NCBI GenBank assembly: GCA_049644325.1
Contig: JBARRR010000039.1
Location: forward strand, 19,867-83,866
Length of the DNA stretch: 64,000 bases
Source of the DNA: Candidatus Dormiibacterota bacterium
GTDB taxonomy: Bacteria > Chloroflexota > Dormibacteria > DASZGP01
Direction: 5' to 3'
A program made the translations under genes and the position numbers. Shown piece by piece: positions 5,592 through 51,273 of the stretch; the first letter of the stretch is position 1; each line of letters begins with the position of its first letter. The notes under the pieces are model-generated. The model was given only the letters and a program-made list of their open reading frames with translations, was not told the DNA's origin and ran no database searches.

Positions 5592-7260
5592 AACCGCCAC
5601 CAAGCCCAAGAACACCGGTCAGCCCCCCACCGCCGAGGAGCACCACGCCATCATCAGCGGCCGGATGCTGACCTTCGTCGGCGTGATGGCGGCCATCTTC
5701 CTGAGCGCCCTTGACCAGACCATCGTCGGTACCGCGCTGCCCAAGGTTGTGGCCGAGCTCAATGGTTTCGATCGCTACACCTGGGTGACCACCGTCTACC
5801 TGCTGACCGCCACGGCGGTCGTCCCGGTGGTCGGCAAGATCTCCGAGCAGCTGGGGCGCAAGCGGGTCTTCCTCACCGGCATCGTCCTGTTCCTGCTCGG
5901 CTCGTTTGTCTGCGGCGCGGCCCAGACCATGACCCAGCTGATCATCTTCCGTGGACTGCAGGGCATCGGCGGCGGCATCCTCACCGGGACCGCGTTCGCG
6001 GTCATCGCCGACCTCTTTGCCCCGGCGGAGCGCGCCAAGTACACCGGTTTCATCGCCGCCACCTTCGGCCTGGCCAGCATCGTGGGGCCGTTCATCGGCG
6101 GCTACCTGACCGACAACCTCAGCTGGCGCTGGATCTTCTACGTCAACCTGCCGGTTGGCATCGCAGTGCTGACCCTGCTCTGGTTCACCTTCCCCCAGCT
6201 GCGCCACGGCAGCACTCACCCCAAGATCGACTTCCTGGGCGCCCTCGGACTCGGTGGTGGCGCGGCCCTGATCACCCTCGGAGCCTCGCTGGCCGGCACC
6301 CACGACTGGAGCTATGCCCCGGTCTGGTACCTGCTGGTGGGCGGCGTCCTGGCGATGGTGGCCACCATCTACTACGAGAGCCGGGTGCCCGAGGCGATCT
6401 TCCCGCCGGGCCTGTTCAAGAACTCGATCTTCTCGCTGTCGATGGTGATCACCTTCATCACCGGCCTCGCCATGTTCGGCAGCATCATCTACATCCCCCT
6501 GTTCCTGCAGGCCGTGGTCGGCGTCAAGGCGACCTACTCCGGGCTGCTGCTGCTGCCCCTGATGGTGGGCATGGTGGTCGGCAGCATCGGGGGTGGTCTC
6601 CTGATCACCCGCACCGGGCGCTACAAGGTGCAGGCGATCGTCGGAATGGCCTTCATGAGCGCGGGCGCCTACCTGCTGACCCTGCTCACGGTTGACTCCA
6701 CCCAGCTGGAGGTGGCCCGCGACGTGGTCCTCTTCGGTCTCGGCCTGGGGCTCAGCTTCTCGGTCTTCAACGTCGTCGCCCAGAACGCCGTCAAGACCGA
6801 GTACATCAGCTCCTCCACCAGCGCGATCCAGTTCGTCCGCCAGATCGGCGGCACCCTGGGCCTGGCGGTGCTGGGCTCGATCGTCAACCAGCAGCTCAAG
6901 GAGAAGATCCCCCAGGACGTGCCCGCCTCCGCGCTGGCCAAGATCCCGCCGCAGCTCCGGTCGCAGATCACCGATCCCCAGGTCCTCTTCAGCGACCAGA
7001 TCCAGAAGGCGATCAACGGGGTCGCCGACCCCCAGGCGAGGGCGGTGTTCGTCCAGACCATCGACCAGATCCAGCACGGCGTTCGCCTGGCGCTGGCGGA
7101 CTCGCTCCACGTGGCCTTCGAGGTCTCACTGGTGGCGCTGGTGGTCTCCCTGTTCCTGACCCTGTTCATAAGGGAGATCCCGCTGAAGAAAACGTCCGCG
7201 ATGCAGGACCGCGCCGCCCTTCGCGCCGAGGCGGCCGCAGCGGGTGAGATGGCCAGCTGA
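5584..7260 (+). CDS. MFS transporter, DHA2-like (14-TMS drug:H+ antiporter type).
   Basis: Motifs LDQTIVGTALP, GKISEQLGRKRVF and GLQGIGGG are present. The product is 558 aa with about 14 hydrophobic segments, in an operon with marR. Confidence 0.85.
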   Translation: MAETATKPKNTGQPPTAEEHHAIISGRMLTFVGVMAAIFLSALDQTIVGTALPKVVAELNGFDRYTWVTTVYLLTATAVVPVVGKISEQLGRKRVFLTGIVLFLLGSFVCGAAQTMTQLIIFRGLQGIGGGILTGTAFAVIADLFAPAERAKYTGFIAATFGLASIVGPFIGGYLTDNLSWRWIFYVNLPVGIAVLTLLWFTFPQLRHGSTHPKIDFLGALGLGGGAALITLGASLAGTHDWSYAPVWYLLVGGVLAMVATIYYESRVPEAIFPPGLFKNSIFSLSMVITFITGLAMFGSIIYIPLFLQAVVGVKATYSGLLLLPLMVGMVVGSIGGGLLITRTGRYKVQAIVGMAFMSAGAYLLTLLTVDSTQLEVARDVVLFGLGLGLSFSVFNVVAQNAVKTEYISSSTSAIQFVRQIGGTLGLAVLGSIVNQQLKEKIPQDVPASALAKIPPQLRSQITDPQVLFSDQIQKAINGVADPQARAVFVQTIDQIQHGVRLALADSLHVAFEVSLVALVVSLFLTLFIREIPLKKTSAMQDRAALRAEAAAAGEMAS

Positions 7261-18027: not shown

Positions 18028-18325
18028 CGGATAGGGGTGGATCGCGAGTCTCAGCTGGGCACGCCCCGTGAGTCTGAAGCGCTCAGTGGAGGTGGCTAGA
18101 AGTCCTGGCAGATCAGCCGGCGTTCCAAAGCCCCCTCGTCGTGCTTGTTAAGAAGATACAACACGGGGCGGCTGAATGGTCATTCCCGCGGCCTAGGGTT
18201 CGGGCGAGATCACCTCGAGTTCGTTGCCATCAGGGTCCCAGATGTAGTCGGCCAGGGGCGAGGAAGAGGGCTCGACCACGGATCCTCGGCGGGGCAGCCT
18301 GGTCCAAGTCGTGGCGCGGCGACGC

Positions 18326-23607: not shown

Positions 23608-23649
23608 TCGCAGCCACGCGGCACCCGCGCCATAGAATTCAGGGAGAGG

Positions 23650-24750
23650 ATGCGTTTACTCCACGTCGCTGACCTGCATCTCGATCGAGCCTTTGGGGGT
23701 ATGGCCTTCGCCGGGTGCGATGGCGCCCGCCGGCGCAGCCTCCTGCGCCAGGGGCTGGAATGGGCCGTCGACACCGCCATCGAGGGCAGGGCCGACGCCG
23801 TGACGATCGGCGGCGACCTCTTTGAGATCGAGCACATCACCAGTGACACTGCGGCGTTTATCGCCCGGCAACTGGGCCGGCTGGACTGTCCCGTGGTGCT
23901 GGCGGCGGGTAACCACGACCCCGCCACGGCGGCGTCGCCCTACCGGACCCTGGAGTGGGCCGCCAACGTCACCCTGGCCCTTGACCCCGTCCCTGTGCGC
24001 GTGGAGACGCCGGACGCCGTGATCTGGGCGCTGGGCTATGCCAGTCGCGAGATCGACGGCGCCGCCTTGAGGTCCTTCCATGTTCCTCCGAACGACGGTC
24101 GCGCCCAGCTGCTGGTGGTCCACGCCGTGGACCTGACCCGGATGGGGACCGACCGAGATTGGGGCAGCCTGGGCCTGCTGCAGCCGGATGTGCGGGCGAT
24201 GGGCATCGACCACGCCCTCCTCGGCCATATCCACTCCGGCCAGGCCGGCGAGCTGATGTCCTGGCCGGGCTCGCCGGTGCCGCTGGATCCCAGCGAGACC
24301 AGCGGCAACCATGGCGCCCTCTGGGTGGACGCGACCCCGGAGCGCGTGGCGGTGGAGGCGGTCGCAGCCGGCCTCAGCCGCTTCGGGGCGGTCAGCGTCG
24401 ACGTCGCCGAGGTGGCCGACTCGTCGGAGCTGGGCAGCCGGGTTCGCGAGAGGCTGGAGGCGAGCCCCGAGCGCGAACGGGCGCTGGTCAGCATCAGGCT
24501 TTACGGCCGCCGCGCCAAGAGCCTGGCGATCGAGCCGGCAGCGCTGGCGGCGGCCGCCTCCGAGTCGGTGATGGGCGCCCTGGTGGCCGACGCCACCGAG
24601 CCCGAGGTCGACCTGGCCCAGCTGGCCCAGGAGCCCAACGCCCGCGGCAGGGCGGTGGCGCGTCTACTCGAGGATGGCGGGGACGTCGGGTTGCGGGCGG
24701 CCCAGCTGGTGGTCGACGCATTCGAAGGCGACATCAGGGTCCCGGCGTGA
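23650..24750 (+). CDS. SbcD/Mre11-like metallophosphoesterase (YhaO-like DNA repair exonuclease).
   Basis: The N-terminus is MRLLHVADLHLD, with GGDLFE and AAGNHD calcineurin-like motifs. Confidence 0.75.
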   Translation: MRLLHVADLHLDRAFGGMAFAGCDGARRRSLLRQGLEWAVDTAIEGRADAVTIGGDLFEIEHITSDTAAFIARQLGRLDCPVVLAAGNHDPATAASPYRTLEWAANVTLALDPVPVRVETPDAVIWALGYASREIDGAALRSFHVPPNDGRAQLLVVHAVDLTRMGTDRDWGSLGLLQPDVRAMGIDHALLGHIHSGQAGELMSWPGSPVPLDPSETSGNHGALWVDATPERVAVEAVAAGLSRFGAVSVDVAEVADSSELGSRVRERLEASPERERALVSIRLYGRRAKSLAIEPAALAAAASESVMGALVADATEPEVDLAQLAQEPNARGRAVARLLEDGGDVGLRAAQLVVDAFEGDIRVPA

Positions 24751-24766
24751 CCATGGGAGCGGCGCG

Positions 24767-26734
24767 ATGAGACTGGTGTCGCTCCGGGTGCGGGGCTACC
24801 GAAGGTTCCACGACATCCTGGTCGACTGCGACCACGACCGGCTGCTGGTAGTCGGTCCCAACGAGGCCGGCAAGTCGACGCTGATGGAGTGCCTGCTGGC
24901 CGGGCTCTTCGGGCTGGCGCCCAGCAAGCGGGGCGGTGGCCACCAGGGAGCGCTGCGCGACGCATCACCCTGGAATGGCGAGCCCTGCGGCCTGAGCCTC
25001 GCATACCGGCTCGACAGCGGGCGCATGGTCGAGGTCGACTGGGACTTCAGCGGCGAGCGCACCCAGGTCATCGACCACACCGGGGGTGACGACATCAGCG
25101 CGGAGTTCACCGGCGGCACCCACGGCTGGCTCGACGTCGGCCAGGCGATGCTGGGTGTGTCTTCGACGGTCTTCCGCCAGTTCACCTGCGTGGGGGAGGG
25201 GGAGCTGGCGGTGATCAGCGACGATGCCGAGATCCGCGAGAGCCTGCTCCGCCTCAGCGATTCCGGGGTTGACGTGCTGGTGGAGCAGGCAATCACCCGC
25301 TTGGAGGACGCTGCCCGCCAGTCGACCATCCCCAAGGCCAACTCCGCCACCCGCCGCAACCAGCTGGAGCGCGACCTGGTCGCCGCCCAGAGGGAGCTGG
25401 ACCGGGTCACCGCGGCGCGGGCCGAGCTCGACTCCGACGTCCACGCGATTGCCCGGACCGAGTCGGCGATCGAGCGCGCCCGCGACGAGGTCGCCGGGAT
25501 GATGGCCGAGGACGACCGCCGCCAGGAGGAGCAGCGGCGCCTGAGCGCGGAGATCGAGCGGGCCTACGGCCGGCTGGCCGAGGCCGAGCTGCGCCGGGCG
25601 TCACTGAGCGCCGACGCGGATGTCCCCAAGGAGGGCCCGCCCTGGAGCGACGCCGACATCGAGACCGCCCGCCAGCTGCTGGTCAGTCCCGAGGAGGCGG
25701 GGAAGCGCCCGGGTCTGCTGCCGCTGATCGTCGGGCTGCTGCTCATCCTGGCGGGCATCGGCGGCCTCGCCGGTGGCCTGGTCGCCCAACTGGGGCCGAT
25801 GCTGGCCGCATCCGCCGCGGTGGCGGCCATTGGGGTCCTGCTCGTGACCCGAGGCGGCATGGGGGCCGCGCGGGCGCGGCTGAGAGTCGGTGCCATGACC
25901 TTCCCTGACAGGGCAGCGCTGATGATCGCCCTCGACCACCAGCGAGCGCGGCGCGAGCTGGCGCAACAGCAGAAGGCGGTTGACGACATCCAGGCGCGGC
26001 TCGACCAGCTGCTCCAGCCGGCTGCGGACATCGATGGCGGCGCGCCCCGCGAGGCCCAGGCCCGCCTCAGCGCCGCCAAGGTGCGACAGACCGAGCTGCG
26101 GCTGCAGCTGGAGCGGCAGCGCACGTCGTTGTCGGTTCGCACCAGCCAGGTCGGGGACGTCGCCGCACTCGAGGAGCAGGTGGCCGGGCTCGGAGCGCAG
26201 ATCGGCGAGCTGGAGGCGTTCGGTGAGTCGGCGCGTCTGGCGGCCCAGCACCTGAAGCAGGCGTCGGAGGAGATCCGACGCGCCTACGCGCCCAAGCTCC
26301 AGGCCTACCTTTCCCGTGACCTGCCACGGATCACGTCGGGACGCTATTCCGAGGCGGTGGTCAACGACAAGTTCGAGGTCATGGTCAGGGCTCCCGAAAC
26401 CAAACAGATGGTGGACCTGGGCCGCCTCAGCCGGGGCACCCAACAGCAGATCTACCTGCTGCTCCGTCTGGGCCTCCTCGACATCGTCGGCTCCAAGGCC
26501 GAACGGCTGCCACTGTTCCTTGACGACGCCCTCGCCCTGAGCGACGAGGACCGCCGCTCCGAGCTGCTCGCGGTGCTGGAGTCCGAGGACCGCCAGGTGA
26601 TCTACTTCACCGCGCAGGAGACCACCGCGGCATCCGCGTTCGCGGATGCGTGGCACCGCGTTCTTCTGCCCGGCCCCAGTGCCGCCGGCAGCGCGCCGCC
26701 CGAGCTCAAGGTTCTCGACTCGCCCCGGGGTTAG
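24767..26734 (+). CDS. SbcC/Rad50-like SMC-type ATPase (YhaN-like) with internal transmembrane segments.
   Basis: Walker A is VVGPNEAGKSTL, the signature-like motif is LSRGTQQQI and the Walker B/D-loop is LPLFLDDAL. There is a coiled-coil middle. Two hydrophobic helices are present: LLPLIVGLLLILAGIGGLAGGLV and LAASAAVAAIGVLLV. Confidence 0.75.
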   Translation: MRLVSLRVRGYRRFHDILVDCDHDRLLVVGPNEAGKSTLMECLLAGLFGLAPSKRGGGHQGALRDASPWNGEPCGLSLAYRLDSGRMVEVDWDFSGERTQVIDHTGGDDISAEFTGGTHGWLDVGQAMLGVSSTVFRQFTCVGEGELAVISDDAEIRESLLRLSDSGVDVLVEQAITRLEDAARQSTIPKANSATRRNQLERDLVAAQRELDRVTAARAELDSDVHAIARTESAIERARDEVAGMMAEDDRRQEEQRRLSAEIERAYGRLAEAELRRASLSADADVPKEGPPWSDADIETARQLLVSPEEAGKRPGLLPLIVGLLLILAGIGGLAGGLVAQLGPMLAASAAVAAIGVLLVTRGGMGAARARLRVGAMTFPDRAALMIALDHQRARRELAQQQKAVDDIQARLDQLLQPAADIDGGAPREAQARLSAAKVRQTELRLQLERQRTSLSVRTSQVGDVAALEEQVAGLGAQIGELEAFGESARLAAQHLKQASEEIRRAYAPKLQAYLSRDLPRITSGRYSEAVVNDKFEVMVRAPETKQMVDLGRLSRGTQQQIYLLLRLGLLDIVGSKAERLPLFLDDALALSDEDRRSELLAVLESEDRQVIYFTAQETTAASAFADAWHRVLLPGPSAAGSAPPELKVLDSPRG

Positions 26735-39031: not shown

Positions 39032-39512
39032 GGGCGGCGGCCAGGGCTCGGTCCACGGCGTCGGCCACCGTGGGGCAAGCCTCCAGCAGCGGCTCGCCGT
39101 CGCCGGGCCTGGACGCCGACCAGGTCTCGAAGCCGAACACCGGCACCCCCAGCTTGCGAGCGATGGCGATCTCGCTGAGGGTTCCGTAACCCCCGCCGAT
39201 GGCGACCACGGCGTCCGCCGAGCGAACCAGGATGACGTTGCGGGCTTCACCGGCCCCGGTGGCGATGCGGACCTGCGCCGGCGCGATGGCCGAGGCCGTG
39301 CTCGCCGCGGGCAGCACGGCGCAGGCAAGTCCGCCGGCGGCGCGGGCGGCCTCGGTCGCCGCCAGCATCACGCCGGTCATTCCGCCGGTCAGCAGCACGG
39401 CTCCCGCCTCCGCGATGCGCGTGCCGGCTTCGGCGGCCGCGCCGTTGTATGGCGTGTCGGGGTCACCGTCGCCGCAGACGGCGACCTGCAGGGGCAGGGG
39501 ATTGGCGGACAT
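39024..39512 (-). CDS. LOG/TIGR00725-family Rossmann protein (SLOG fold).
   Basis: It has GGMTGVM and IGGGYGTLSEIA, the LOG signatures GGGxGxMG and PGGxGTxxE. Confidence 0.7.
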   Translation of the reverse strand: MSANPLPLQVAVCGDGDPDTPYNGAAAEAGTRIAEAGAVLLTGGMTGVMLAATEAARAAGGLACAVLPAASTASAIAPAQVRIATGAGEARNVILVRSADAVVAIGGGYGTLSEIAIARKLGVPVFGFETWSASRPGDGEPLLEACPTVADAVDRALAAARG

Positions 39513-39609
39513 GGACCTGGACCGAGGCTAGCATCGGGGGGTGGAGGCGGCCTGGCCGCCGGTCCCGGTGGGCAGGCCTTGAATGTAGTCCTAGAATCCG
39601 GCCATTCGC

Positions 39610-39692
39610 GTCGGCGTGGTGGAACGGTAGACACGCCAGCTTTAGGAGCTGGTCCCCGCGAGGGGGTGGAGGTTCGAGTCCTCTCGCCGACA
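39610..39692 (+). tRNA. tRNA-Leu (anticodon UAG), class II with a long variable arm.
   Basis: The acceptor stem is 7 bp, GTCGGCG/CGCCGAC. The anticodon stem is CCAGC/GCTGG with loop TTTAGGA. The variable arm is a hairpin, TCCCCGCGAGGGGGT. The T-loop is TTCGAGT with stem GGAGG/CCTCT. The discriminator is A and CCA is not encoded. Confidence 0.85.
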
Positions 39693-39779
39693 GTCTTCAC
39701 CAGCCGCGGCGCCCGCGCAGATTTCTGACGCCCTCGTCAGAAACTGTGGTACTTTGGCCACTGGCGGAAGGTTTCGGAG

Positions 39780-40703
39780 GTGCCCATGGCAACTACCACT
39801 AGCGACGTCGAGCAGGCGAGCCTGGTTCAGCTCGGCAACACCCACATCGACGAAGTCCTGACCCTGCTCGACCACGGGTTGGAGCGGCTCCCCAGCTACC
39901 GCGAGCTCTACCTCCGGTGGGAGCGCCAGCAGTGGAAGACCCAGGACCTCGACTTCACCCAGGACAGGATCGACAACGAGCGCCAGAAGGCCGAGGGCAA
40001 CACCCGCCAGCTGGAGGAGTCGGAGCGGACCTACGCCTCCTTCTGGATCGGCGAGCACCAGGTCACCGTCGACCTGCTGCCCTTCGTGATCGCCGCCCCC
40101 GACACCGAGCAGAAGCTCTTCCTCACCACCCAGGTGGTCGACGAGGCCCGCCACATGGTCTTCTTCGACCGCTTCTACTCCGAGGTCCTGGGGGTCGAGG
40201 AGGCCACCCTCCACGACCGGATCTGGGCGCAGAAGCCCCACGTCTACCGGGCCTATGACGACATCTTCTTCGGCACCCTGGCCAAACTCGCCGACGACCT
40301 CCGCCGGGAGCCCGAGAACTTCGACACCCTGGTCCGCGGCGTGACCGTGTACCACATCATCATCGAGGGCTTCCTGGCGCTCACCGGGCAGCGCTTCACC
40401 CTCGACTACCTTCGCCGCGAAGACCAGCTACCCGGCTTCCGAGCGGGGTTCACCGCGATCATGCGCGACGAGTCCCGGCACATCACCTTCGGGACCAAGT
40501 TCCTGTACGACGCGGTGCACCAGGACCCCAGGTGGGTCGGAGTGATCCAGGACCAGCTGAACCAGACGCTGCCGCTGAGCATGACGTTGCTCGAGGATTC
40601 CGATCCCACCGTCTCCGGCTACACCCAGGACGAGGTCACCACCTGGGGGATGCGTTCGCTGGAAAAGCGCCTCAAGGTCATCGGCGTCCCCTTCGGCCTG
40701 TAG
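39780..40703 (+). CDS. R2-like ligand-binding oxidase (ferritin-like, RNR small-subunit-like Mn/Fe protein).
   Basis: Diiron-carboxylate motifs are present: VDEARHMVFF, IIEGFLALTG and RDESRHITFG. The product is 307 aa. Confidence 0.75.
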   Translation: MPMATTTSDVEQASLVQLGNTHIDEVLTLLDHGLERLPSYRELYLRWERQQWKTQDLDFTQDRIDNERQKAEGNTRQLEESERTYASFWIGEHQVTVDLLPFVIAAPDTEQKLFLTTQVVDEARHMVFFDRFYSEVLGVEEATLHDRIWAQKPHVYRAYDDIFFGTLAKLADDLRREPENFDTLVRGVTVYHIIIEGFLALTGQRFTLDYLRREDQLPGFRAGFTAIMRDESRHITFGTKFLYDAVHQDPRWVGVIQDQLNQTLPLSMTLLEDSDPTVSGYTQDEVTTWGMRSLEKRLKVIGVPFGL

Positions 40704-40806
40704 GACCCCGAGCCGGCCAAGAGGCCGGTACACAACGTTTTACTGAAACTTAACAGTCACAGTGCACTTCTACCTATTCTGAGGCGTCCCGCGAACATAC
40801 ACTCAG

Positions 40807-41541
40807 GTGGCCATGGGACTCAGCGGGATCGCGGTGGCATCACACGGGTTGAGGTACTACCTCGACCAGGTCCCTGGTGGCCAGGCGATCACCCAGCAGA
40901 TCTACGCCCACAAGGCGATTGCGGTATTCGGCGTGATCGCCTTGGAGGAGGTGGGGATCCCGGTCCCGCTCCCCGGCGATGCGTTCATCGCCTTTGCCGG
41001 CCACCTGGTGGCGCGCCAGGCGCTGGACCCGGTTTCGGCTTTCCTGGCCGTGGTCCTCGGGGCGATGATCGGCTCCAGCGTCCTCTACTGGCTGGCCCGG
41101 ATCTACGGGAAGCCGTTCGTCAAGCGATACGGCCCCTACATGCACGTCAAGCAGTCGCGGATCGACCGGTTGGAGCGCTGGTTCAAGCGTTGGGGTCCGC
41201 TGGCTGTGATCTTCGGGCGCCACGTCCCCGGGTTCCGGATCGTGCTCTCGGTGTGCGCCGGGCTTTTCGGCGTCAGCTACCCGGTGTTCGTGAGCTCGGT
41301 GGCGGTCTCCGCCAGCCTCTGGGCGGGGATGTTCCTGGTCATCGGCTTCTTCCTCAGCCGCCAGATCGGCCCGTACATGGACATCACACCCCTGCACCTC
41401 CTGCCCAGCACCATCGTGATCAGCAGCAGCATCATCTACGCGCTCATCGTCAAGCGTCGGGCGACCCGCGCCGAGGCCCTGGCCGACGCGCCACTGGTGG
41501 TCAGCGACCCGCTGGTCGCCACCAGCCGGGCCCCTTTCTAA
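40807..41541 (+). CDS. DedA/SNARE-associated family membrane protein.
   Basis: It has VPLPGDAFI...RYGPY...FGRHVPGFR. Confidence 0.75.
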   Translation: MAMGLSGIAVASHGLRYYLDQVPGGQAITQQIYAHKAIAVFGVIALEEVGIPVPLPGDAFIAFAGHLVARQALDPVSAFLAVVLGAMIGSSVLYWLARIYGKPFVKRYGPYMHVKQSRIDRLERWFKRWGPLAVIFGRHVPGFRIVLSVCAGLFGVSYPVFVSSVAVSASLWAGMFLVIGFFLSRQIGPYMDITPLHLLPSTIVISSSIIYALIVKRRATRAEALADAPLVVSDPLVATSRAPF

Positions 41542-41611
41542 ACCGCAGGCCGCCCCGCTGACCTCCTCGCCGCCGCCCCCGGATTGGGGCGAACGCGAGA
41601 CCAGCGACCTG

Positions 41612-42094
41612 ATGTCCGAGCTGGAGCGGCTGGAGAAAGCTGCCGTACCCCTTCGGGCTGAGCTCGACCGACTGCGAAAGGAGGTGGACCTGGTCCGCAG
41701 CGAGCTCCGGCGCCGGGAGCGGGCAGAGCGGCTGCGCCAGCGACAGGAGGCCCGGGCGGAGATGGCCGCGGGCCAGGTGCCGAGCCTCGAAGACGCGATC
41801 TCGGGGGCGGCCGCCGGGTTCGACGACGCGGTCCTGGACGATCTCCGCTTCCTCCGTGAAAGCGCCACCGAGGTCCGCCTGGGGTACGCCTCGGCGTCAC
41901 GCCAGAGCCTCAGCTTCACCGACGGCGCCGCCACCGAGGAGGCTTTCGACGTCGGCACAGCCCGCGAGCTCTGGAAGCGCGGCTGGGAGTGGGGCACCCC
42001 TGCCGCGTCGGGGGTCCGGGTCTACCCGGTCGGCAGCCGGGCGGAGCGGGTGGTGCCCGCGGCTGAGGTCCACGTCGAGCCGCGCCAGGCCTGA
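41612..42094 (+). CDS. Hypothetical protein with an N-terminal coiled coil.
   Basis: It starts ELERLEKAAVPLRAELDRLRKEVDLVRSELRRRERAERLRQRQ. Confidence 0.45.
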   Translation: MSELERLEKAAVPLRAELDRLRKEVDLVRSELRRRERAERLRQRQEARAEMAAGQVPSLEDAISGAAAGFDDAVLDDLRFLRESATEVRLGYASASRQSLSFTDGAATEEAFDVGTARELWKRGWEWGTPAASGVRVYPVGSRAERVVPAAEVHVEPRQA

Positions 42095-42177
42095 TCGCCG
42101 CCCAGCATCGCCTCCCGGGTGGGTTGGGATAGAATCCCTAGCAGATTAGTCGGGTATTGTCCGGAAGGAGGTTCGGC

Positions 42178-42633
42178 ATGGCTGTCCAGGCATTCGACCG
42201 CACCGTCCTCAAGGTGGGCCAGGTGTTCATCATCGGCATCAACGTGGTCGCCTTTACGCTGGGGTTCGTGCTCCAGGTGAACTACGCCTGGCTGCTGGTG
42301 CCGTTGGTGGGCGTGATCATGGCCCTGGGCGTGGTCAACCCCCAGCTCAACCTCTTCCGGCAGTTCTACCTGCGGGTGCTCAAGCCCAGCGGCATCGTCA
42401 AGCCCAACGTCGCCCAGGAGGACCCGACTCCCCACCAGTTCGCCCAGGGCGTGGGCGCCAGCTTCCTCGGGTTCAGCACCGTCGCCTTCCTGCTGGGCGC
42501 CACCGGGGCCGGCTGGGTCCTGGCCTGGATCGTCATCGTCCTGGCCTTCGTCAACTTCGCCTTCGACTTCTGCGTCGGCTGCCAGGTCTACTTCCAGCTT
42601 GACCGCATGCACCTCCTGCCCCGCCGGGGGTAG
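42178..42633 (+). CDS. DUF4395-family integral membrane protein.
   Basis: It has four TMs and the C-terminal motif FAFDFCVGCQVYF. Confidence 0.65.
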   Translation: MAVQAFDRTVLKVGQVFIIGINVVAFTLGFVLQVNYAWLLVPLVGVIMALGVVNPQLNLFRQFYLRVLKPSGIVKPNVAQEDPTPHQFAQGVGASFLGFSTVAFLLGATGAGWVLAWIVIVLAFVNFAFDFCVGCQVYFQLDRMHLLPRRG

Positions 42634-42654
42634 GCGACCCCGACCCCACCGATC

Positions 42655-43059
42655 GTGATTGAGCGCCTCGGGCTCCTTGCCGTCCTCCTCCTGGGGCTGG
42701 CCGTGCTCTTTTTGGCGGTCAGGCTGGCGGCGGTCTACCGGCGTGGCAAGCGGGTCAACCGCGTGGTCGACCCCGCCTTGAGCCAAGGGCGGCCCACGGT
42801 CCTCTTCTTCACCGCGGACTACTGCACCGTCTGCCGCTACCGCCAAAAGCCGGCGCTTGACGAGCTCAAGAGCGCCCTCGACGGCGACCTCCGGGTGGTC
42901 GAGGTCGACGCCCCGGCCGAAGAGCCGCTGGTCCGTCGGTTCGGGGTCCTGACCCTGCCCAGCACGGTGGTGCTTGCCGCCGACGGCCGCGTCTCCGCCG
43001 TCAACTACGGCTTCGCACCCAGCGACCAGCTCCGCGCCCAGGTGGCCAGCGTCGGCTGA
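42655..43059 (+). CDS. Membrane-anchored thioredoxin-family protein.
   Basis: It has an N-terminal TM, the CXXC motif YCTVC and the motif LVRRFGVLTLPSTVVL. Confidence 0.7.
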   Translation: MIERLGLLAVLLLGLAVLFLAVRLAAVYRRGKRVNRVVDPALSQGRPTVLFFTADYCTVCRYRQKPALDELKSALDGDLRVVEVDAPAEEPLVRRFGVLTLPSTVVLAADGRVSAVNYGFAPSDQLRAQVASVG

Positions 43060-43087
43060 GGCCGCGGGTCCGGGGCCCGGAGCCCCG

Positions 43088-43897
43088 GTGGGGGCGTCCT
43101 TCAGCAGCCTGGCGCTGTACCACGCCTGTCCGCTCAAGTACCGCTACCTGGAGGTCGACCACCTCGATGAGCCGGCCACGCCCCCAGAGTGGCGGCGTGC
43201 GCCGGCGCGGATCGCGGAGACGGTGGCGTCGGAGCTCGACCGCCGGCTGGGGGCCGGAGTGCACGCCGCCCTTCTGCGCTGGCAGCGCCGGGTCGATGGC
43301 GGGGCGCCGCCCCGGGCCGCCGACCTGCTGGCCGTGGTGCGAGAGGAGGCCGATGGGCGGGGCCTGGCAGGGAAGGAGTTCGACGGCGCGATGACCCGGA
43401 TGGCCGCCGGCCTGGGCGCCTATGCCGAGGGGCCCTGGCCGAAACGGACGACCCTGTTCCTGGAGCAGGCGGTTCGCCACGTGATCCAGGACGCGGACGG
43501 CTTCGCCATCGAGCTCAAGCTGAGGGTCGACCGCGTCGTCCGCTACCAGCGCCGGGTGGCCATCCTCGACTTCAAGACGGTCACGCCGCACGCCTTCGAG
43601 ATGGCCATCGACGAGTGGCAGCTGCGGACCTACGTGATGGCGGCGCCGGAGCTGCTCGGGCTCGATCCGTCGCAGGTGCGGCTGTTCCTCATCGACCTGC
43701 GATCGGGCGCGGAGGCCCCGGTCGCCTCGGGCCTTGCCGCACTTGCTGGCGCGCGGCGCGAGCTGCTTCGCGCCGGGAGGGGTATCGTCGCTGGCGCCTT
43801 CGGTGTCGACGGTGTCCCCGAGCGTCCCTGCTGGGACTGTGGCTTCCGGCTGGCGTGCCCGTCGTCGCTGGCGCCCGACCCTCCTCACGCCCACTAG
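43088..43897 (+). CDS. PD-(D/E)xK nuclease with a Cas4/AddB-like 4-Cys Fe-S arrangement. It is stand-alone, with no cas context.
   Basis: There is an N-terminal Cys in YHACPLKY, the core VDRVV...ILDFKT (D...D-x-K) and EWQLRTY (QxxxY), and a C-terminal CWDCGFRLAC. The GTG start is at 43088. Confidence 0.65.
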   Translation: MGASFSSLALYHACPLKYRYLEVDHLDEPATPPEWRRAPARIAETVASELDRRLGAGVHAALLRWQRRVDGGAPPRAADLLAVVREEADGRGLAGKEFDGAMTRMAAGLGAYAEGPWPKRTTLFLEQAVRHVIQDADGFAIELKLRVDRVVRYQRRVAILDFKTVTPHAFEMAIDEWQLRTYVMAAPELLGLDPSQVRLFLIDLRSGAEAPVASGLAALAGARRELLRAGRGIVAGAFGVDGVPERPCWDCGFRLACPSSLAPDPPHAH

Positions 43898-43907
43898 ACT
43901 CGGCCCC

Positions 43908-44162
43908 ATGCCCCAGTGGGAGATAGTGGAGGAGATGCGGGAGGTGCCACCCGGCAGGGCGGGCACCCTGATCCCATCGTGGAACACCGGCTTCCCGCTG
44001 CGATCGGAGCCCCATGGCGGGCCCACCGGCGGGGTGGTGCGACCGGGTCAGAAGCTCCACGTGCTGGAGGCCCGCGACGGCCACCTGCTCGTGCAACAGG
44101 AGGCCGCCGGCCTCCACGGCTGGATACCGCGGCACATCGTCGCCCCCTGGCCCGAGCCCTAG
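43908..44162 (+). CDS. Small SH3-like domain protein (85 aa).
   Basis: It has GQKLHVLEARDGHLLVQQEAAGLHGWIPRHIV, a bacterial SH3-like pattern. It starts 10 nt after the nuclease stop. Confidence 0.45.
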   Translation: MPQWEIVEEMREVPPGRAGTLIPSWNTGFPLRSEPHGGPTGGVVRPGQKLHVLEARDGHLLVQQEAAGLHGWIPRHIVAPWPEP

Positions 44163-44178
44163 CTCGCCTGACGCACGT

Positions 44179-44883
44179 TCAGAGGAGGTGAGTCAGGCGC
44201 TTCCTCAGGAGCCGCGGTCCCGCGGGCGCCTCGTACACCGGCAGCAGCGCCGACATGGCCGCCCGGGCTTCAGCCATCACCGTGTCGACCTCCTTGCCCT
44301 CGGGTGAGATCGGGCTGCCGATGATGATCCGGACGGTCTTGCGCAGCCAGAGGTCCTGCGTCCCCGAGAGCGCCACCGGCACCACCGGGACTTGGTTGTC
44401 GACGGCGAAGTGAGCGAAGCCCGAGTGGAAGTCCTGGATCGCGCCCTCCCGGTCGCCGTAGTGCCCTTCTGGAAACAGCCCCACGGCGCCGCCTCGGTGC
44501 AGGCAGAGGTCGACGTAGTGGTACAGGGTCCGGTCACCGTGCCGCGACTGGTCGACCGCGATGTAGCCGCCAACGCTGCGCACCACGCGCCACTGGAAAC
44601 GGTGGGTGACAAGGCCCTCGGGGTTGCCCAGGAAGTGCACCCGGGGGACGACGGGCAGGGCGTAGAGCAGGACGAACGGGTCGAGCCAGTTGAGGTGGTT
44701 GGCGATGGCGATGTAGGCGCCCCCATGCGCTCCGTCGCGCGGCAGGTTCTCACGACCCTCGACTCGGAGGCGGAACACGGCTCGGAAGATGGGCAGCAGG
44801 ATGGCTCGCGCGGCGCGATACCCGGCCGTCGCCTCGCGCTGAACCGGCAGCAGGTCGGCCGAAGGTAGCCCGGCGGCCGGCAT
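44179..44883 (-). CDS. 1-acyl-sn-glycerol-3-phosphate acyltransferase (LPLAT/PlsC family).
   Basis: It has the HX4D motif in IANHLNWLDP and an FPEGH motif. Confidence 0.8.
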   Translation of the reverse strand: MPAAGLPSADLLPVQREATAGYRAARAILLPIFRAVFRLRVEGRENLPRDGAHGGAYIAIANHLNWLDPFVLLYALPVVPRVHFLGNPEGLVTHRFQWRVVRSVGGYIAVDQSRHGDRTLYHYVDLCLHRGGAVGLFPEGHYGDREGAIQDFHSGFAHFAVDNQVPVVPVALSGTQDLWLRKTVRIIIGSPISPEGKEVDTVMAEARAAMSALLPVYEAPAGPRLLRKRLTHLL

Positions 44884-45784: not shown

Positions 45785-46807
45785 ATGATCCGCGACGCCA
45801 TCGCCCGGCTGATCAACGGCGACGACCTGGACCGCGCCCAGGCCGAGGCGACGATGGACGACATCATGAACGGCGATGCCACCGAGTCCCAGATCGCCGG
45901 CCTGCTGGTGGCGCTCCGGCTCAAGGGTGAGACCGTCGATGAGATCGTCGGCCTGGTCTCGTCGATGCGCTCCCACGCGCGCACCCTGACCGCGCCCGAT
46001 GGCGCCGTCGACACCTGCGGCACCGGCGGCGATGGCGCCGGCACATTCAATATCTCGACCGCCGCCGCCATCGTCGTCCGAGGCGCCGGCGCGCCGGTCG
46101 CCAAGCACGGAAATCGCTCCTCCTCCAGCCTCTGCGGCAGCGCCGACGTGCTTGAGGCGCTGGGCGTGCCGATGTCGCTGACGGCCGACCAGGTCCAGGC
46201 CTGCCTCGACGCTACCGGGATCTGCTTCATGCTGGCGCCCACCTTTCACCCCGCGATGCGGCACGCGGGGGTCCCGCGCAAGGACCTCGGCATCCGTACC
46301 GTCTTCAACATCCTCGGACCCCTGGCCAACCCGGCCATGGTCCGGCGCCAATCATTGGGCGTGGCCAGCGCCCAGATGGCGCCCCTGATGGCGAGCGTCC
46401 TCAAGGAGCTGGGCCACGAGCGAGCGCTGGTCTTCTGCGGCAATGACGGCCTCGACGAGCTGAGCGTGGCGGCGCCGTCCCGGGTCTGGGAGCTGCGCGA
46501 CGGGGAGGTTCGCGAGTACGACATCGACGGCGCGTCATTGGGACTGGCGGTGGCGCAGCCCGGCGACCTCAAGGGCGGGGACGCCGCCGCCAACGCGGTC
46601 ATCCTCAACGCCGTCCTGGACGGCGAGACGGGCTCCCGTCGCGATGTCGTGCTGCTCAACGCCGCCGCCGCCCTGGTGGCCGCGGGTGTGGCTGAGGACC
46701 TCCCCCGGGGCATCGAGAAAGCGCGCGGGTCAATCGACAGCGGCGCAGCCCGGCAGGCGCTCGCCGACCTGCGCGACACCGCCCAGTCCCTGGCCTCGGT
46801 TTCCTAG
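45785..46807 (+). CDS. trpD: Anthranilate phosphoribosyltransferase.
   Basis: It has CGTGGDGAGTFNISTAAAIV and KHGNRSSSS. Confidence 0.9.
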   Translation: MIRDAIARLINGDDLDRAQAEATMDDIMNGDATESQIAGLLVALRLKGETVDEIVGLVSSMRSHARTLTAPDGAVDTCGTGGDGAGTFNISTAAAIVVRGAGAPVAKHGNRSSSSLCGSADVLEALGVPMSLTADQVQACLDATGICFMLAPTFHPAMRHAGVPRKDLGIRTVFNILGPLANPAMVRRQSLGVASAQMAPLMASVLKELGHERALVFCGNDGLDELSVAAPSRVWELRDGEVREYDIDGASLGLAVAQPGDLKGGDAAANAVILNAVLDGETGSRRDVVLLNAAAALVAAGVAEDLPRGIEKARGSIDSGAARQALADLRDTAQSLASVS

Positions 46808-46817
46808 TCCAAGCCCC

Positions 46818-48194
46818 GTGACCGAGGACCTGGCATTCCGCTTCCCGGACGGCTTCCTCTGGGGCGCGGCCACCGCCGCCCACCACGTAGAGGGCCACAA
46901 CGACAACTGCGACTGGTGGGAGTGGGAGCTGGAGGGCGGCCATATCAAGGACGGCAGCGTCAGCGGCGCCGCCTGCGAGCACTACACCCGCTACCAGCAG
47001 GACTTCGAGATGCTCCACTCCATGGGCCACAATGCCCACCGCATCTCGATCGAATGGAGCCGGATCGAGCGCTCCCCGGGCGAGATCGACGGCCAGGCGG
47101 TGGCCCACTACCGCGACGTGCTCGAGACCCTGCGCGGGCTCGGCATCACGCCGTTGGTCAGTCTCCACCACTTCACCAGCCCCACCTGGTTCGCCCAGGC
47201 GGGCGGTTTCGAGGCCGACACCTCGGTGCGGGCCTTCCGCCGTTTCGCCCGCCTCTGCGCCCAGGAGTACGGCGACCTGGTCGACATCTGGACGACCTTC
47301 AACGAGCCCAACGTCTACGCCTACCAGGGCTATGCCATCGGCGAGTGGCCGCCGCAGAAGCAGGACCTGGGCGCCGCCTCCCGGGTCCAGCGCAACATGG
47401 TCCGCGCCCACGCCGCCGCCTTCGACGAGCTCAAGTCCGGCCCCCACGGAGGCAGTGCCCGGGTCGGTATCGCCCAGCACATGCGAGTGTTCGCGCCCAA
47501 CCGGCCCTGGCTCCCTCTCGACCGGCTGGCCGCCCGGTTACCGCACCTCGGCTTCAACCACTGGTTCCTGCGCGCCTGCACCGACGGCTACGCCGGCTTC
47601 CCGCTGGGGTTCCGCGAGCGCATACCCGAGGCGGCAGGCACCATGGACTACGTCGGCCTCAACTACTACAGCCGCGACATGGTCGCCTTCGACCCCACCC
47701 GGCCGACGTCACTCTTCTCGCACAACTTCGCCAGGCCCGGCGCCGAGCTGTCGGACTTCCAGATGGAGGTCTACCCGGAGGGCATCCACACAGTGTTGCT
47801 CGACGCCTGGCGGACCTATGGCAAGCCGATCTATATCACCGAGAACGGCGTCGCCGACGCCACCGACCGGCTGCGACCGCGGGCGCTGGTCTCGCATCTG
47901 GCGGAATGCGGCAGGGCGATGCTGGACGGCGTCGACCTGCGCGGCTACCTGCATTGGTCGACGATGGACAACTTCGAGTGGGCCGAGGGCTACCGCATGC
48001 GCTTCGGCTTGGTCGAGGTCGACTTCGAGACCCAGGAGCGGATCCCTCGACCCAGCGCCGCGCTCTACAGTCGCCTCATTGCCCAGCACGGGCTGGTCTG
48101 GAGCGACCTCCAGGATTACTACCCGCGGGCGTTACCCTACTTCGTCGGTGCCGGCAGCAGGCTCAGCCGCTCCAGGCGGAGAAGCCCCTCGTAA
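46818..48194 (+). CDS. GH1-family beta-glucosidase.
   Basis: It has TFNEPN (acid/base) and ITENG (nucleophile), with an N-terminal FLWGAATAAHHVEG. The GTG start is 11 nt after the trpD stop. Confidence 0.85.
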   Translation: MTEDLAFRFPDGFLWGAATAAHHVEGHNDNCDWWEWELEGGHIKDGSVSGAACEHYTRYQQDFEMLHSMGHNAHRISIEWSRIERSPGEIDGQAVAHYRDVLETLRGLGITPLVSLHHFTSPTWFAQAGGFEADTSVRAFRRFARLCAQEYGDLVDIWTTFNEPNVYAYQGYAIGEWPPQKQDLGAASRVQRNMVRAHAAAFDELKSGPHGGSARVGIAQHMRVFAPNRPWLPLDRLAARLPHLGFNHWFLRACTDGYAGFPLGFRERIPEAAGTMDYVGLNYYSRDMVAFDPTRPTSLFSHNFARPGAELSDFQMEVYPEGIHTVLLDAWRTYGKPIYITENGVADATDRLRPRALVSHLAECGRAMLDGVDLRGYLHWSTMDNFEWAEGYRMRFGLVEVDFETQERIPRPSAALYSRLIAQHGLVWSDLQDYYPRALPYFVGAGSRLSRSRRRSPS

Positions 48195-49836: not shown

Positions 49837-49893
49837 CCGTCCCCGGGCCGGGGCCATCACCTACAATGCGGCGCACATGAGAGGGATGGACCG

Positions 49894-50850
49894 GTGACCT
49901 ACGGCACGATCAAGTGCCCCAACTGCGGGGCGCCCATCCCGGTCAACAGCGAGGCGTGTCAGTACTGCGGCGAGGCCCTGCCCAAGGCCGCGCCCCCACC
50001 GCCGCAGGCGACGCCTTCGGTCATGCTCAACTTCAACCAGGAGGCCTTCGACCAGGTGGCGGTCGCAAGCGCTCGCAGCTTCCTGTGGGCCTTCATCGCC
50101 ATCCCCATCGTGCTGGTGGTGATCGGGATCATCGTCGCCGTTACGGTGTTCTCGAGCCTGGGACGCAGCACCTCCAGCGGCCTGTCTCTCGGCACCTCCA
50201 GCAACGTCTCCCAGCTGCAGTCCAAGAAGTGCGAGAACTGCAGCCTGCCCAACACCACCGCCAACAACACCGACCTCTCCGGGGGCAAGTTCAGGGGCAT
50301 CAGCCTGGTCAACGGCAGCTTCCGGGGCAGCAACTTCAAGAACGCAGACCTGTCCCGGGCCGACCTCAGCAACGCCAAGATGTCCAATGCCGACCTGTCG
50401 GGGGCCGACCTCACCGGGGCGAAGCTCAGCAACGTAGACCTCAGCGGCGCCAACCTCTCTGGCGCCAAGCTGGACTCGGTCACCGCCGCCAACACCGACT
50501 TCAGCCAGGCCAACCTGAAGGAGGTGAGCATCACGGGGACGCCGGCGCTGGTCAACGCCGTCCTCAACGGGGCCGACCTGACCGGCGCCACGCTGCAGAA
50601 CGCGGACCTGACCAATGGCAAGCTCGACCACGCCAAGCTCCGCAGCGCCAGCCTGACCGACGTCAAGCTGATCAACGGCATTCTCACCGGGGCCGACCTC
50701 ACCAGCGCCAAGCTGACCCGCATCAATTTCATCAACGCCAACCTGACCGGGGCCACGACCGCCGGGGTGACGTCCACCGGGACCAGCACGTGGACCAACG
50801 CCCACTGCGTCGACGGCGGCGTGGTGCCGTTCGGCGGCAAGTGCTTCTGA
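49894..50850 (+). CDS. Pentapeptide-repeat protein with an N-terminal C4 zinc ribbon and one TM.
   Basis: The zinc ribbon is CPNCG...CQYCG and the TM is LWAFIAIPIVLVVIGIIVAV. About 30 A(D/N)LSG-type pentapeptide units follow. Confidence 0.8.
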   Translation: MTYGTIKCPNCGAPIPVNSEACQYCGEALPKAAPPPPQATPSVMLNFNQEAFDQVAVASARSFLWAFIAIPIVLVVIGIIVAVTVFSSLGRSTSSGLSLGTSSNVSQLQSKKCENCSLPNTTANNTDLSGGKFRGISLVNGSFRGSNFKNADLSRADLSNAKMSNADLSGADLTGAKLSNVDLSGANLSGAKLDSVTAANTDFSQANLKEVSITGTPALVNAVLNGADLTGATLQNADLTNGKLDHAKLRSASLTDVKLINGILTGADLTSAKLTRINFINANLTGATTAGVTSTGTSTWTNAHCVDGGVVPFGGKCF

Positions 50851-50887: not shown

Positions 50888-51273
50888 GTGTTGCGTGACG
50901 AGTCGGCAAGGTGACCGCGGCGGGAGCGATCCCGTCGAGGAAAGTCCGAGCTCCGTAGAGCAGAGTGCCGGGTAACACCCGGCGGGCGTGAGCCCAGGGA
51001 AAGTGCCACAGAAAATACACAGCCTCGGCGTAAGCCGGGGTGAAGGTGAAATGGTGGAGGTAAGAGCCCACCGGCGACCGGGAGACCGGCCGGCCTGGTA
51101 AACCCCACTCGGAGCAAGACCTAAAGGAGGACGCCAAGGCTGCTCGCCAAGTCCTCGGGTTGGTCGCTGGAGGCGCCGGGTAACCGGCGCCGTAGATAGA
51201 TGGTCACCACCCCAAGGCCTTTACCGCCTAGGGGTACAGAACTCGGCTTACCGCCGGTCTCGCCACGCAACAC
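50888..51273 (+). ncRNA. rnpB: RNase P RNA, bacterial type A.
   Basis: Conserved blocks are present: GGAAAGTCCGAGCTCC, CACAGAAAATACA, GGTGAAATGGTGGAGGTAAGAGCCCACC, GGTAAACCCCACTCGGAGCAAGACC and ACAGAACTCGGCTTA. The P1 helix pairs 5-prime GTGTTGCGTGACGAG with 3-prime CTCGCCACGCAACAC. Confidence 0.9.

Follow-up and report, generated by a model that had tools for sequence, protein, structure and literature searches.

The four closely spaced genes at positions 42178-44162 of a 64-kb stretch of a Candidatus Dormibacterota chromosome (the whole of which we call the window) most probably constitute two independent two-gene units, placed side by side within a vertically inherited housekeeping block. 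The first unit, a membrane protein of the DUF4395 family followed by a membrane-anchored thioredoxin, is widespread; the second, a putative stand-alone Fe-S nuclease followed by an SH3-like protein, is lineage-specific. A first-pass annotation had treated the four genes as one compact module. What emerges instead is two pairs, the redox pair recurring in distant loci that carry neither the nuclease nor the SH3 gene.

Organization of the locus

All four open reading frames were confirmed on the plus strand. The DUF4395 membrane protein (151 aa, positions 42178-42633; PF14340, E 8e-29) opens with an ATG, upstream of which the sequence reads GGAAGGAGG. It is followed by a thioredoxin-fold protein of 134 aa (42655-43059, GTG start; PF00085, E 3.6e-9), a stand-alone PD-(D/E)XK nuclease of 269 aa (43088-43897, GTG start; PF12705, E 1.4e-22) and an SH3-like protein of 84 aa (43908-44162) with weak matches to SH3_16 and SH3_3. 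Pfam matches, motifs and the nuclease fold agree with the four identities given in the first-pass annotation, and the intervening gaps, reported there as 10-28 nt, were read from the sequence as 21, 28 and 10 nt in gene order.

Upstream of these genes, and outside both pairs, the plus strand carries a ferritin-like/R2-like protein (39780-40703) and a DedA/VTT membrane protein (40807-41541), both assigned by Pfam, and a conserved 160-aa hypothetical protein (hyp160; 41612-42094). Downstream lies a PlsC-type acyltransferase (44179-44883, minus strand; Pfam), followed by genes assigned through the Pfam annotation of their orthologues and phmmer: an alpha/beta hydrolase (44890 to about 45720, minus strand), TrpD (45785-46807, plus strand) and a GH1 glycosidase (about 46850-48194, plus strand). 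GC content is even across the region.

Because the gaps are short, the four genes are likely to be co-transcribed and hence co-regulated, as far as the sequence allows this to be judged. A wider reading takes all seven same-strand genes from the R2-like gene to the SH3 gene (39780-44162) as one stress operon, for instance for oxidative stress or desiccation, whose products would maintain the membrane redox state and process DNA ends under shared regulation, with no physical interaction between them. These genes are separated by gaps of 10-103 nt and their order is conserved in the clade; consensus scans predicted no terminator-like site between 39400 and 44500, and the sole promoter-like site, at 39569, lies upstream of the run. 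Furthermore, an experiment in which Deinococcus was UV-irradiated listed DUF4395 as differentially expressed, with a log2FC of 0.9 (PMC6886795). Consensus scans, however, carry little weight in a phylum with uncharacterised promoters, some loci (L002 and L019) lack DedA, and inserted genes displace the SH3 gene from the nuclease gene in others (L010 and L014); we consider a single stress operon unlikely.

The DUF4395-thioredoxin pair

The DUF4395 protein covers positions 2-130 of the 130-position PF14340 profile with a score of 101 bits against a cut-off of 24.5. Its AF2 model is a four-helix bundle (pLDDT 89.2; helices 8-31, 37-53, 84-105 and 109-129), and two of its motifs are invariant, EDPxPH (82-86) and FCxGC (131-135), the latter reading FCVGC in the window protein and corresponding to the CxGC motif recognized in the first-pass annotation. 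From the K/R distribution and the positive-inside rule, we infer that FCxGC lies at the cytoplasmic end of TM4. The residues of FCxGC, together with D82, P85 and H86, are candidates for a functional role. A tblastn search of DUF4395 against plasmids gave no match.

The thioredoxin-fold protein scores 37 bits against the PF00085 cut-off of 23.5 and is built of one N-terminal TM helix, a K/R-rich stretch and then a CTVC active-site motif; the distribution of K/R residues suggests that the thioredoxin domain is cytoplasmic. Assignment as a TrxA equivalog was rejected on its sub-cut-off score against TIGR01068 (37.5 bits against 96.8) and its N-terminal TM anchor; it likewise falls below the TrxC equivalog (29.2 against 125). 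An NCBIfam match to MauD (E 0.018) was far under the cut-off. The protein is 42% identical to the thioredoxin partner found at locus L015, where the genes run DUF4395, thioredoxin, GT87.

The association of the two genes is without exception in the loci sampled. In 56 of 56 distant loci (46-57% identity, GC 0.48-0.73) and 9 of 9 close metagenomic loci, the gene immediately after DUF4395 on the same strand encodes a thioredoxin homologue, such that an anchored CxxC thioredoxin adjoins DUF4395 in all 65 informative loci. Gaps between the two genes mostly range from -25 to +55 nt, with a maximum of 165 nt, and each of the 83 loci with a thioredoxin homologue (within L001-L101) encodes a partner possessing both a TM anchor and CxxC. 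The thioredoxin is thus an obligate partner of DUF4395, and the pair is self-contained, strictly paired and widely distributed.

The nuclease and the SH3-like protein

The nuclease carries the full signature ascribed to it in the first-pass annotation (an N-terminal cysteine, CxxC-x5-C, D / DxK and QxxxY), in the form of the motifs YHACPLKY, CWDCGFRLAC, VDRVV, ILDFKT and EWQLRTY. Invariant in 16 orthologues, whose identity to the window protein is 49-64%, are the RecB-type catalytic set (D148, D161-x-K163 and Q178-xxx-Y182) and one N-terminal and three C-terminal cysteines (C14 and C248xxC251x5C257), the putative cluster ligands. PF12705 was matched with 81.3 bits against a cut-off of 22, over profile positions 3-247 of 247. 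This was the only Pfam match at E<=0.01; the Cas4 family profiles (PF01930 and TIGR00372) gave no match, NCBIfam gave none at E<=0.1, and neither single-sequence nor profile searches of PDB sequences returned a meaningful match. Likeness to solved structures is visible at the fold level only, where the protein has the AdnA/AddB nuclease-domain fold, cluster subdomain included, and Argonaute-associated ACE1 as its top Foldseek match. Judged by motifs and fold, the protein is a predicted stand-alone Fe-S nuclease of the Cas4/AddB/AdnA type. It falls in a class that has already been described, namely the Cas4-like proteins of pfam12705 found outside CRISPR and related to AdnA/AddB domains; such pfam12705 proteins are not CRISPR-associated (PMC5704561).

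A CRISPR association was rejected for the window nuclease too: repeat scans of the full 64 kb revealed no spaced-repeat array, and the ORFs scanned, a subset of those in the window, were of housekeeping type and included no cas gene. The earlier statement that the window holds neither CRISPR repeats nor cas genes therefore stands for repeats throughout the 64 kb and for cas genes among the scanned ORFs only.

The nuclease orthogroup is narrow. An exhaustive profile search yielded only 9 representative clusters at E<=1e-30, after which scores dropped sharply to the C-terminal domains of ~1000-aa proteins composed of UvrD-helicase, UvrD_C and PDDEXK_1, and the orthologues occur only in one Dormibacteria clade. 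A genome-collection scan with the nuclease alignment, whose patterns (RPCWxCGFR and [LI]DFKTV[PTS]PH) are too specific to reach beyond the clade, recovered 10 loci, all in Dormibacterota-type MAGs (some labelled Chloroflexota or Solibacter). A second, word-indexed homologue search with the alignment added one distant match (P0206), situated among PAC2 and Zincin_2 genes, with no DUF4395, thioredoxin or SH3 gene in its context. The likely ancestor of the nuclease is the corresponding domain of a UvrD-type helicase-nuclease.

The SH3-like protein of the window matches SH3_16 weakly (E 0.005, 17 bits against a cut-off of 25.8), and its orthologue at locus L001 passes the same cut-off with 28.1 bits. 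The family shares an invariant TLIPSWNTGxPL motif and aligns with 74% mean column identity; no TM segment or signal peptide is visible in the sequence, features by which the protein is predicted to be cytoplasmic. Its gene directly follows that of the nuclease in most loci, and it is absent from the 12-kb L007 contig.

One could envisage the nuclease and SH3-like protein as an anti-phage or anti-plasmid unit, centred on an immune nuclease of the 'solo-Cas4' type rather than a repair enzyme, and lying beside the redox pair by chance. Links to defence contexts have been described for solo-Cas4 and Cas4-like proteins of pfam12705, and plasmid immunity was lower in a solo-Cas4 mutant (PMC5704561; PMC12094033). 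The structural match to ACE1 would be in keeping with such a role, as would weak PHROG 'exonuclease' matches and the faster evolution of the nuclease (44-65% identity) than of the neighbouring DUF4395 (62-88%) within the same clade. However, PADLOC assigned no significant family to any of the four proteins (best matches E 0.023-0.036, about 11-12 bits, the first being DruK at E 0.023), the surroundings of the nuclease gene showed no Argonaute, cas, restriction-modification or mobile-element genes, and its position is fixed and vertically inherited in a housekeeping block of uniform GC. A defence island was accordingly rejected on the PADLOC result, the lack of mobile-element signs and the uniform GC, and an immune function for the pair appears improbable.

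Conservation of gene order

In the 25 nuclease-bearing loci the order LOG, R2-like, (DedA), hyp160, DUF4395, thioredoxin, nuclease, SH3, (PlsC), hydrolase, TrpD, GH1 is kept, forming a collinear block of about 12 genes conserved in the Dormibacteria clade. Every nuclease orthologue of these loci directly follows the thioredoxin gene, with some tens of nt between the two; where the four genes co-occur, at least eight unrelated flanking genes are as syntenic as the four themselves. Because this block of about 12 genes keeps its order in the clade, the adjacency of nuclease and redox pair can be attributed to common descent.

Beyond the clade, the two units separate. Neither a nuclease nor an SH3 gene is present in any of the 34 distant loci whose downstream sequence extends for 1.5 kb or more, or of the 19 with 3 kb or more on each side; these loci are metagenomic contigs with flanks of at most 4 kb, and the absence applies to the stretch so covered. 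A nuclease orthologue elsewhere in these genomes is made less likely by the small number of clusters that the exhaustive profile search yielded. Pfam scans of selected flanking genes, used as all-vs-all BLAST clustering was swamped by spurious low-complexity, high-GC ORFs, revealed that the neighbours of the pair vary (NYN/GT87, acyl-CoA dehydrogenase/DUF3501, PAPS reductase, DUF1385/HAD, CofD/CofC, an AMP-binding enzyme). Indeed, no other window gene recurs in 73 distant DUF4395 loci, from which the R2-like, DedA/VTT and hyp160 genes are absent. Co-occurrence of the four genes in relatives, proposed earlier as a measure of the module, thus amounts to synteny in one Dormibacteria clade and to none in the distant loci. 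With its conserved but unrelated neighbours, this is the outcome that the first-pass annotation itself had named as telling against the module.

The first-pass annotation had suggested redox-gated nuclease activity or Fe-S cluster delivery. On such a model, DUF4395 and the thioredoxin would gate the nuclease according to redox state, either by reducing its cysteines or by inserting or repairing its cluster. Consistent with this are the short gaps on one strand, the adjacency of nuclease and thioredoxin genes in all 25 loci that carry the nuclease, the predicted cytoplasmic position of both the thioredoxin domain and the DUF4395 CxGC, and the four invariant cysteines of the nuclease; the thioredoxin domain, if cytoplasmic, may be able to contact a cytoplasmic nuclease. 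Yet the redox pair lacks the nuclease in all 34 distant loci with sufficient downstream sequence, and the two units adjoin only in a clade where TrpD, GH1, the hydrolase and the R2-like gene are equally fixed in position. Moreover, the Fe-S cluster of this nuclease class is described as stapling the structure, and no thioredoxin dedicated to it is known (PMC12094033); the related helicase-nuclease domains share the cysteine pattern with no such partner known. Coupling of the redox pair to the nuclease finds no comparative support, and we judge a single redox-gated module to be very unlikely. A restricted version, whereby in Dormibacteria the nuclease and SH3 genes were inserted into the thioredoxin/DUF4395 operon and their products became clients of the redox pair, is in our estimation a slim prospect. 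Probable co-transcription leaves coupling within Dormibacteria conceivable, but no sign was seen of the pair acting on the nuclease. Were it true, the redox state of the membrane or the cell would act as a switch for DNA-end processing, either by reducing the cysteines that ligate the cluster or by way of cluster repair.

Discussion

Taken together, our findings leave the four-gene module with little significance of its own, its adjacency being explained by inherited gene order, and direct attention to the strictly conserved, uncharacterised pairing of DUF4395 with thioredoxin. An uncharacterised family gains a clear partner, an anchored CxxC thioredoxin, and with it a way into a domain of unknown function. 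Both cysteine motifs of the pair would lie at the cytoplasmic face of the membrane, where the tethered thioredoxin could exchange electrons with the cysteines of FCxGC in the DUF4395 four-helix bundle, or keep them reduced. Alternatively, these cysteines may form a metal site with the invariant D82 and H86. That DUF4395 and its anchored thioredoxin constitute an undescribed, widespread thiol- or metal-handling system at the inner face of the membrane is much more likely than that the nuclease is their client.

Within the two-unit reading that we favor, the second unit is of interest in its own right. The phylum of the Dormibacteria comprises uncultured, desiccation-tolerant soil bacteria. The Dormibacteria carry a lineage-specific, free-standing copy of a helicase-nuclease's Fe-S nuclease domain, usually together with a highly conserved 84-aa SH3-like protein, and the two represent a small candidate system for DNA repair. 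The nuclease would depend on Mg and cut single-stranded DNA or DNA ends during repair or recombination, with the SH3-like protein as a possible accessory binding partner. ACE1 is an ssDNA endonuclease, and the 'iron staple' of Cas4-family proteins and of the AddAB/AdnAB nuclease domains is built from the four cysteines (PMC12094033); the four-cysteine cluster of the window nuclease may likewise be such a structural staple.

Each unit can be set against known systems. Membrane thiol-redox pairs, in which a membrane protein works with a thioredoxin-fold partner, include DsbB/DsbA, VKOR-Trx, CcdA/ResA and MauE/MauD. As in these pairs, a small polytopic protein with a conserved cysteine pair, here DUF4395, is encoded next to a thioredoxin-fold CxxC protein, and for DUF4395 the adjacency is strict. 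Unlike in them, the only cysteine pair of DUF4395 is its single CxGC, and both cysteine motifs are predicted to be cytoplasmic rather than on the outer side.

The window nuclease resembles the known non-CRISPR stand-alone Fe-S PD-(D/E)XK nuclease (~270 aa) in being solo and outside CRISPR loci, but it has no Argonaute gene nearby, lies in a housekeeping block and not a defence context, shows only 14-17% identity and matches no Cas4 model. With CRISPR-associated Cas4 (SSO0001, Pcal_0546 and type I-C Cas4) it has the catalytic and cysteine motifs in common; in contrast to them, it is accompanied neither by cas1 or cas2, as far as ORFs were scanned, nor by a CRISPR array in 64 kb, and it is longer, with extra helices, and structurally nearer to AdnA. 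Its closest relatives are the nuclease domains of AdnA/AdnB and AddB type (UvrD-Cas4-like fusions, pfam12705), which bear the same D...DxK, QxxxY and 1+3 cysteine signature; the C-terminal domains of Dormibacteraeota-type UvrD helicase-nucleases are 30-32% identical to it end to end. Unlike AddAB/AdnAB subunits, however, it is a protein of 269 aa without a helicase domain or an adjoining helicase gene, and unlike AdnA/AddB it is encoded ahead of a small SH3-like gene and has orthologues in one Dormibacteria clade only. The nuclease is therefore a member of the AddAB/AdnAB domain family, yet not an AddAB/AdnAB subunit.

Results

Four open reading frames lie where the first-pass annotation had placed them, all on the plus strand and separated by 21, 28 and 10 nt, and Pfam backs three of the four identities. 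The DUF4395 gene (42178-42633, +) has an ATG start after GGAAGGAGG (Pfam E 8e-29), whilst the genes for a thioredoxin-fold protein (Trx; 42655-43059, +; Pfam Thioredoxin E 3.6e-9, above cut-off) and a PD-(D/E)XK nuclease (43088-43897, +; PDDEXK_1 E 1.4e-22) both have GTG starts. The fourth, an ATG-initiated SH3-like ORF of 84 aa (43908-44162, +), matches SH3_16 and SH3_3 weakly; its orthologue at L001, one of the loci compared with the window, passes the SH3_16 cut-off, and ten orthologues show 74% identity per column with an invariant TLIPSWNTGxPL. Across 39400-44500 no terminator-like site was predicted, and the sole promoter-like site, a sigma-70-like match at 39569-39597, lies just 5' of a tRNA gene (39610-39692, +; Rfam, 56.5 bits) which is itself just upstream of an R2-like gene. 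Judging from these signals, it is plausible that several of these genes are co-transcribed. Window GC is ~70%.

All of the nuclease motifs in the first-pass annotation are present in the window protein, and C14, C248-x2-C251-x5-C257, D148, D161-x-K163 and Q178-x3-Y182 are invariant in 16 orthologues of 49-64% identity to it; P0001, an NCBI protein of a Candidatus Dormiibacterota MAG, is 100% identical. By sequence alone the nuclease found no match in the PDB, and neither NCBIfam nor PADLOC returned a significant family. An AlphaFold2 model built from 41 homologues was confident (pLDDT 92.7, pTM 0.87), its best Foldseek matches in the PDB being ACE1 (E 2.7e-8), AdnA, AddB, SSO0001 Cas4, Dna2, RecE and Exo5. 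When 1.84 billion representative proteins were searched exhaustively with a profile, just 9 clusters reached E<=1e-30, the traceable ones being orthologues or orthologue fragments already found. Below these, scores fall to E ~1e-26 or weaker, and most of the next-ranked matches lie in the C-terminal part of ~950-1100 aa proteins carrying UvrD-helicase, UvrD_C and PDDEXK_1 domains, some from Dormibacteraeota. Residues 4-259/260 of the nuclease align end to end with these UvrD-type proteins at 30-32% identity, spanning both the N-terminal SFSxLxxxxxCP and the C-terminal RPCxxCxxxxxC.

Cas4-like proteins of pfam12705 are without CRISPR association, and UvrD fusions form their largest branch (Hudaiberdiev et al., PMC5704561). 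The nuclease belongs among them; hence its earlier label of stand-alone Cas4-like Fe-S nuclease was apt, and for such a protein a CRISPR-free setting is normal. Repeat scans of the 64-kb window agreed with the first reading in finding no CRISPR-like array, the sole sizeable repeat family being a pentapeptide-repeat protein gene (49837-50850, +) with 15/45-nt periodic direct repeats at 50341-50748. The nuclease is a new, lineage-restricted protein within an already known class.

The four genes stand together, with the same flanking genes, at loci of nuclease homologues down to 44% identity. The order across 25 nuclease-bearing loci is LOG, R2-like ferritin-fold, (DedA), 160-aa hypothetical, DUF4395, Trx, nuclease, SH3, (PlsC), alpha/beta hydrolase, TrpD and GH1. 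Since the flanks are equally kept within the clade, adjacency of nuclease and Trx is no more informative than adjacency of nuclease and TrpD. The link between the nuclease and SH3 genes is looser: they are ~550 nt apart in L010, three ORFs (~1.6-1.9 kb) separate them in L014, and L007 has the downstream block in the reverse orientation to other loci, starting directly after the nuclease, with the SH3 gene absent from this 12-kb contig. The gene directly after the L007 nuclease encodes RNase P RNA (6603-6952, minus strand); the window carries a bacterial class A RNase P RNA at 50899-51266 (+; Rfam RF00010, 272 bits).

In all Dormibacteria loci the same-strand run opens with the ferritin-like gene (39780-40703, +). 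Its product stays below the gathering score for the ribonucleotide reductase small chain (29.2 vs 33.6 bits) and could be an R2-like ligand-binding oxidase instead of a true RNR subunit. The conserved 160-aa hypothetical (41612-42094, +), whose N-terminal part resembles a charged coiled coil, matched nothing in Pfam, NCBIfam or PHROG. Where the upstream sequence is long enough, nuclease-bearing loci nearly always have it immediately 5' of DUF4395; DUF4395 loci outside the clade lack it.

Scanning metagenome contigs with a DUF4395 alignment gave 80 loci (46-83% identity, GC 0.48-0.73), whose six-frame ORFs were searched with HMMs for the four proteins. Given at least 450 nt downstream, Trx lay directly 3' of DUF4395 on the same strand at 9/9 close loci and 56/56 distant ones, making 65/65 informative loci across GC 0.48-0.73. 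All Trx partners carry CxxC plus a hydrophobic N-terminal helix with K/R residues directly behind it. Nuclease and SH3 were both present at 6/6 close loci with at least 1.5 kb downstream; neither was found by HMM at any of 34 distant loci with at least 1.5 kb downstream, or at any of 19 with 3 kb or more on each flank. No further window gene recurs at the distant loci, where neighbours range from NYN and GT87, flanking DUF4395 and a 42% identical Trx (CSDC) in the L015-type lineage, to acyl-CoA dehydrogenase/DUF3501, PAPS reductase, DUF1385/HAD, CofD/CofC and an AMP-binding enzyme. The strict pairing, the absence of nuclease and SH3 and the varied neighbours therefore define DUF4395-Trx as a self-contained, widely conserved pair, with nuclease and SH3 as neighbours specific to the clade. 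The PAPS reductase, a member of a thioredoxin-dependent enzyme family, is a single case in one lower-GC lineage (L037, 5180-5983, +), ~290 nt after the Trx gene on the same strand.

Discussion

The four genes and their identities are borne out. The proposal that a redox pair is functionally coupled to the nuclease is not supported, given the distant DUF4395-Trx loci without nuclease or SH3. Nor is a four-gene module supported, since the observations that the first-pass annotation had itself named as telling against one were made: genes with no relation to the four keep their places just as well, and synteny of the four is lost in more distant relatives. We leave a slim residual chance that the redox pair is wired to the nuclease in Dormibacteria.

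That DUF4395 is so strictly paired with an anchored Trx is the most useful by-product of this analysis. It yields a concrete hypothesis for a domain whose function is unknown and on which just two papers in the literature searched touch, both briefly. DUF4395 was modelled (pLDDT 89.2) as a bundle of four membrane helices plus a helix in a loop, and its K/R residues cluster at the N-terminus, TM2-TM3 loop and C-terminus. Under the positive-inside rule this pattern predicts a cytoplasmic position for both the invariant EDPxPH loop and the invariant FCxGC where TM4 ends; the invariant D82, P85, H86 and C132xGC135 could form a metal site, not a redox CxxC. In Trx, five to seven K/R residues directly follow the anchor and hardly any precede it, which predicts a membrane-tethered cytoplasmic thioredoxin domain. 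The most economical model is that the two would act as a thiol-disulfide or metal-handling pair at the inner membrane face.

By analogy with AdnA, AddB and ACE1, the nuclease would be a Mg-dependent, Fe-S-stabilised ssDNA or DNA-end nuclease, with the small SH3-like protein as its putative accessory partner. We favour housekeeping repair or recombination rather than defence for the two, because they are inherited vertically within a housekeeping block, GC is uniform and no defence model matched. The window holds a further DNA-end processing system, in which a probable SbcD-like gene (23608-24750, +) comes before an SbcC-like ATPase (AAA_23; 24572-26734, +). It also encodes a 952-aa Upf1-like SF1 helicase (AAA_11/AAA_12; 15289-18147, -), whose ~400-aa N-terminal region has no Pfam match, and, truncated by the window start, a large protein with FG-GAP repeats (2-3355, +; at least 1117 aa).

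Both halves of the locus can be set against known systems. ResA/TlpA-type proteins have the opposite orientation, their domain lying across the membrane from the predicted cytoplasmic domain of this Trx. The nuclease shares its free-standing form with ACE1, an ssDNA endonuclease of the same class, a class in which the four Cys are described as holding an Fe-S "iron staple" (PMC12094033).
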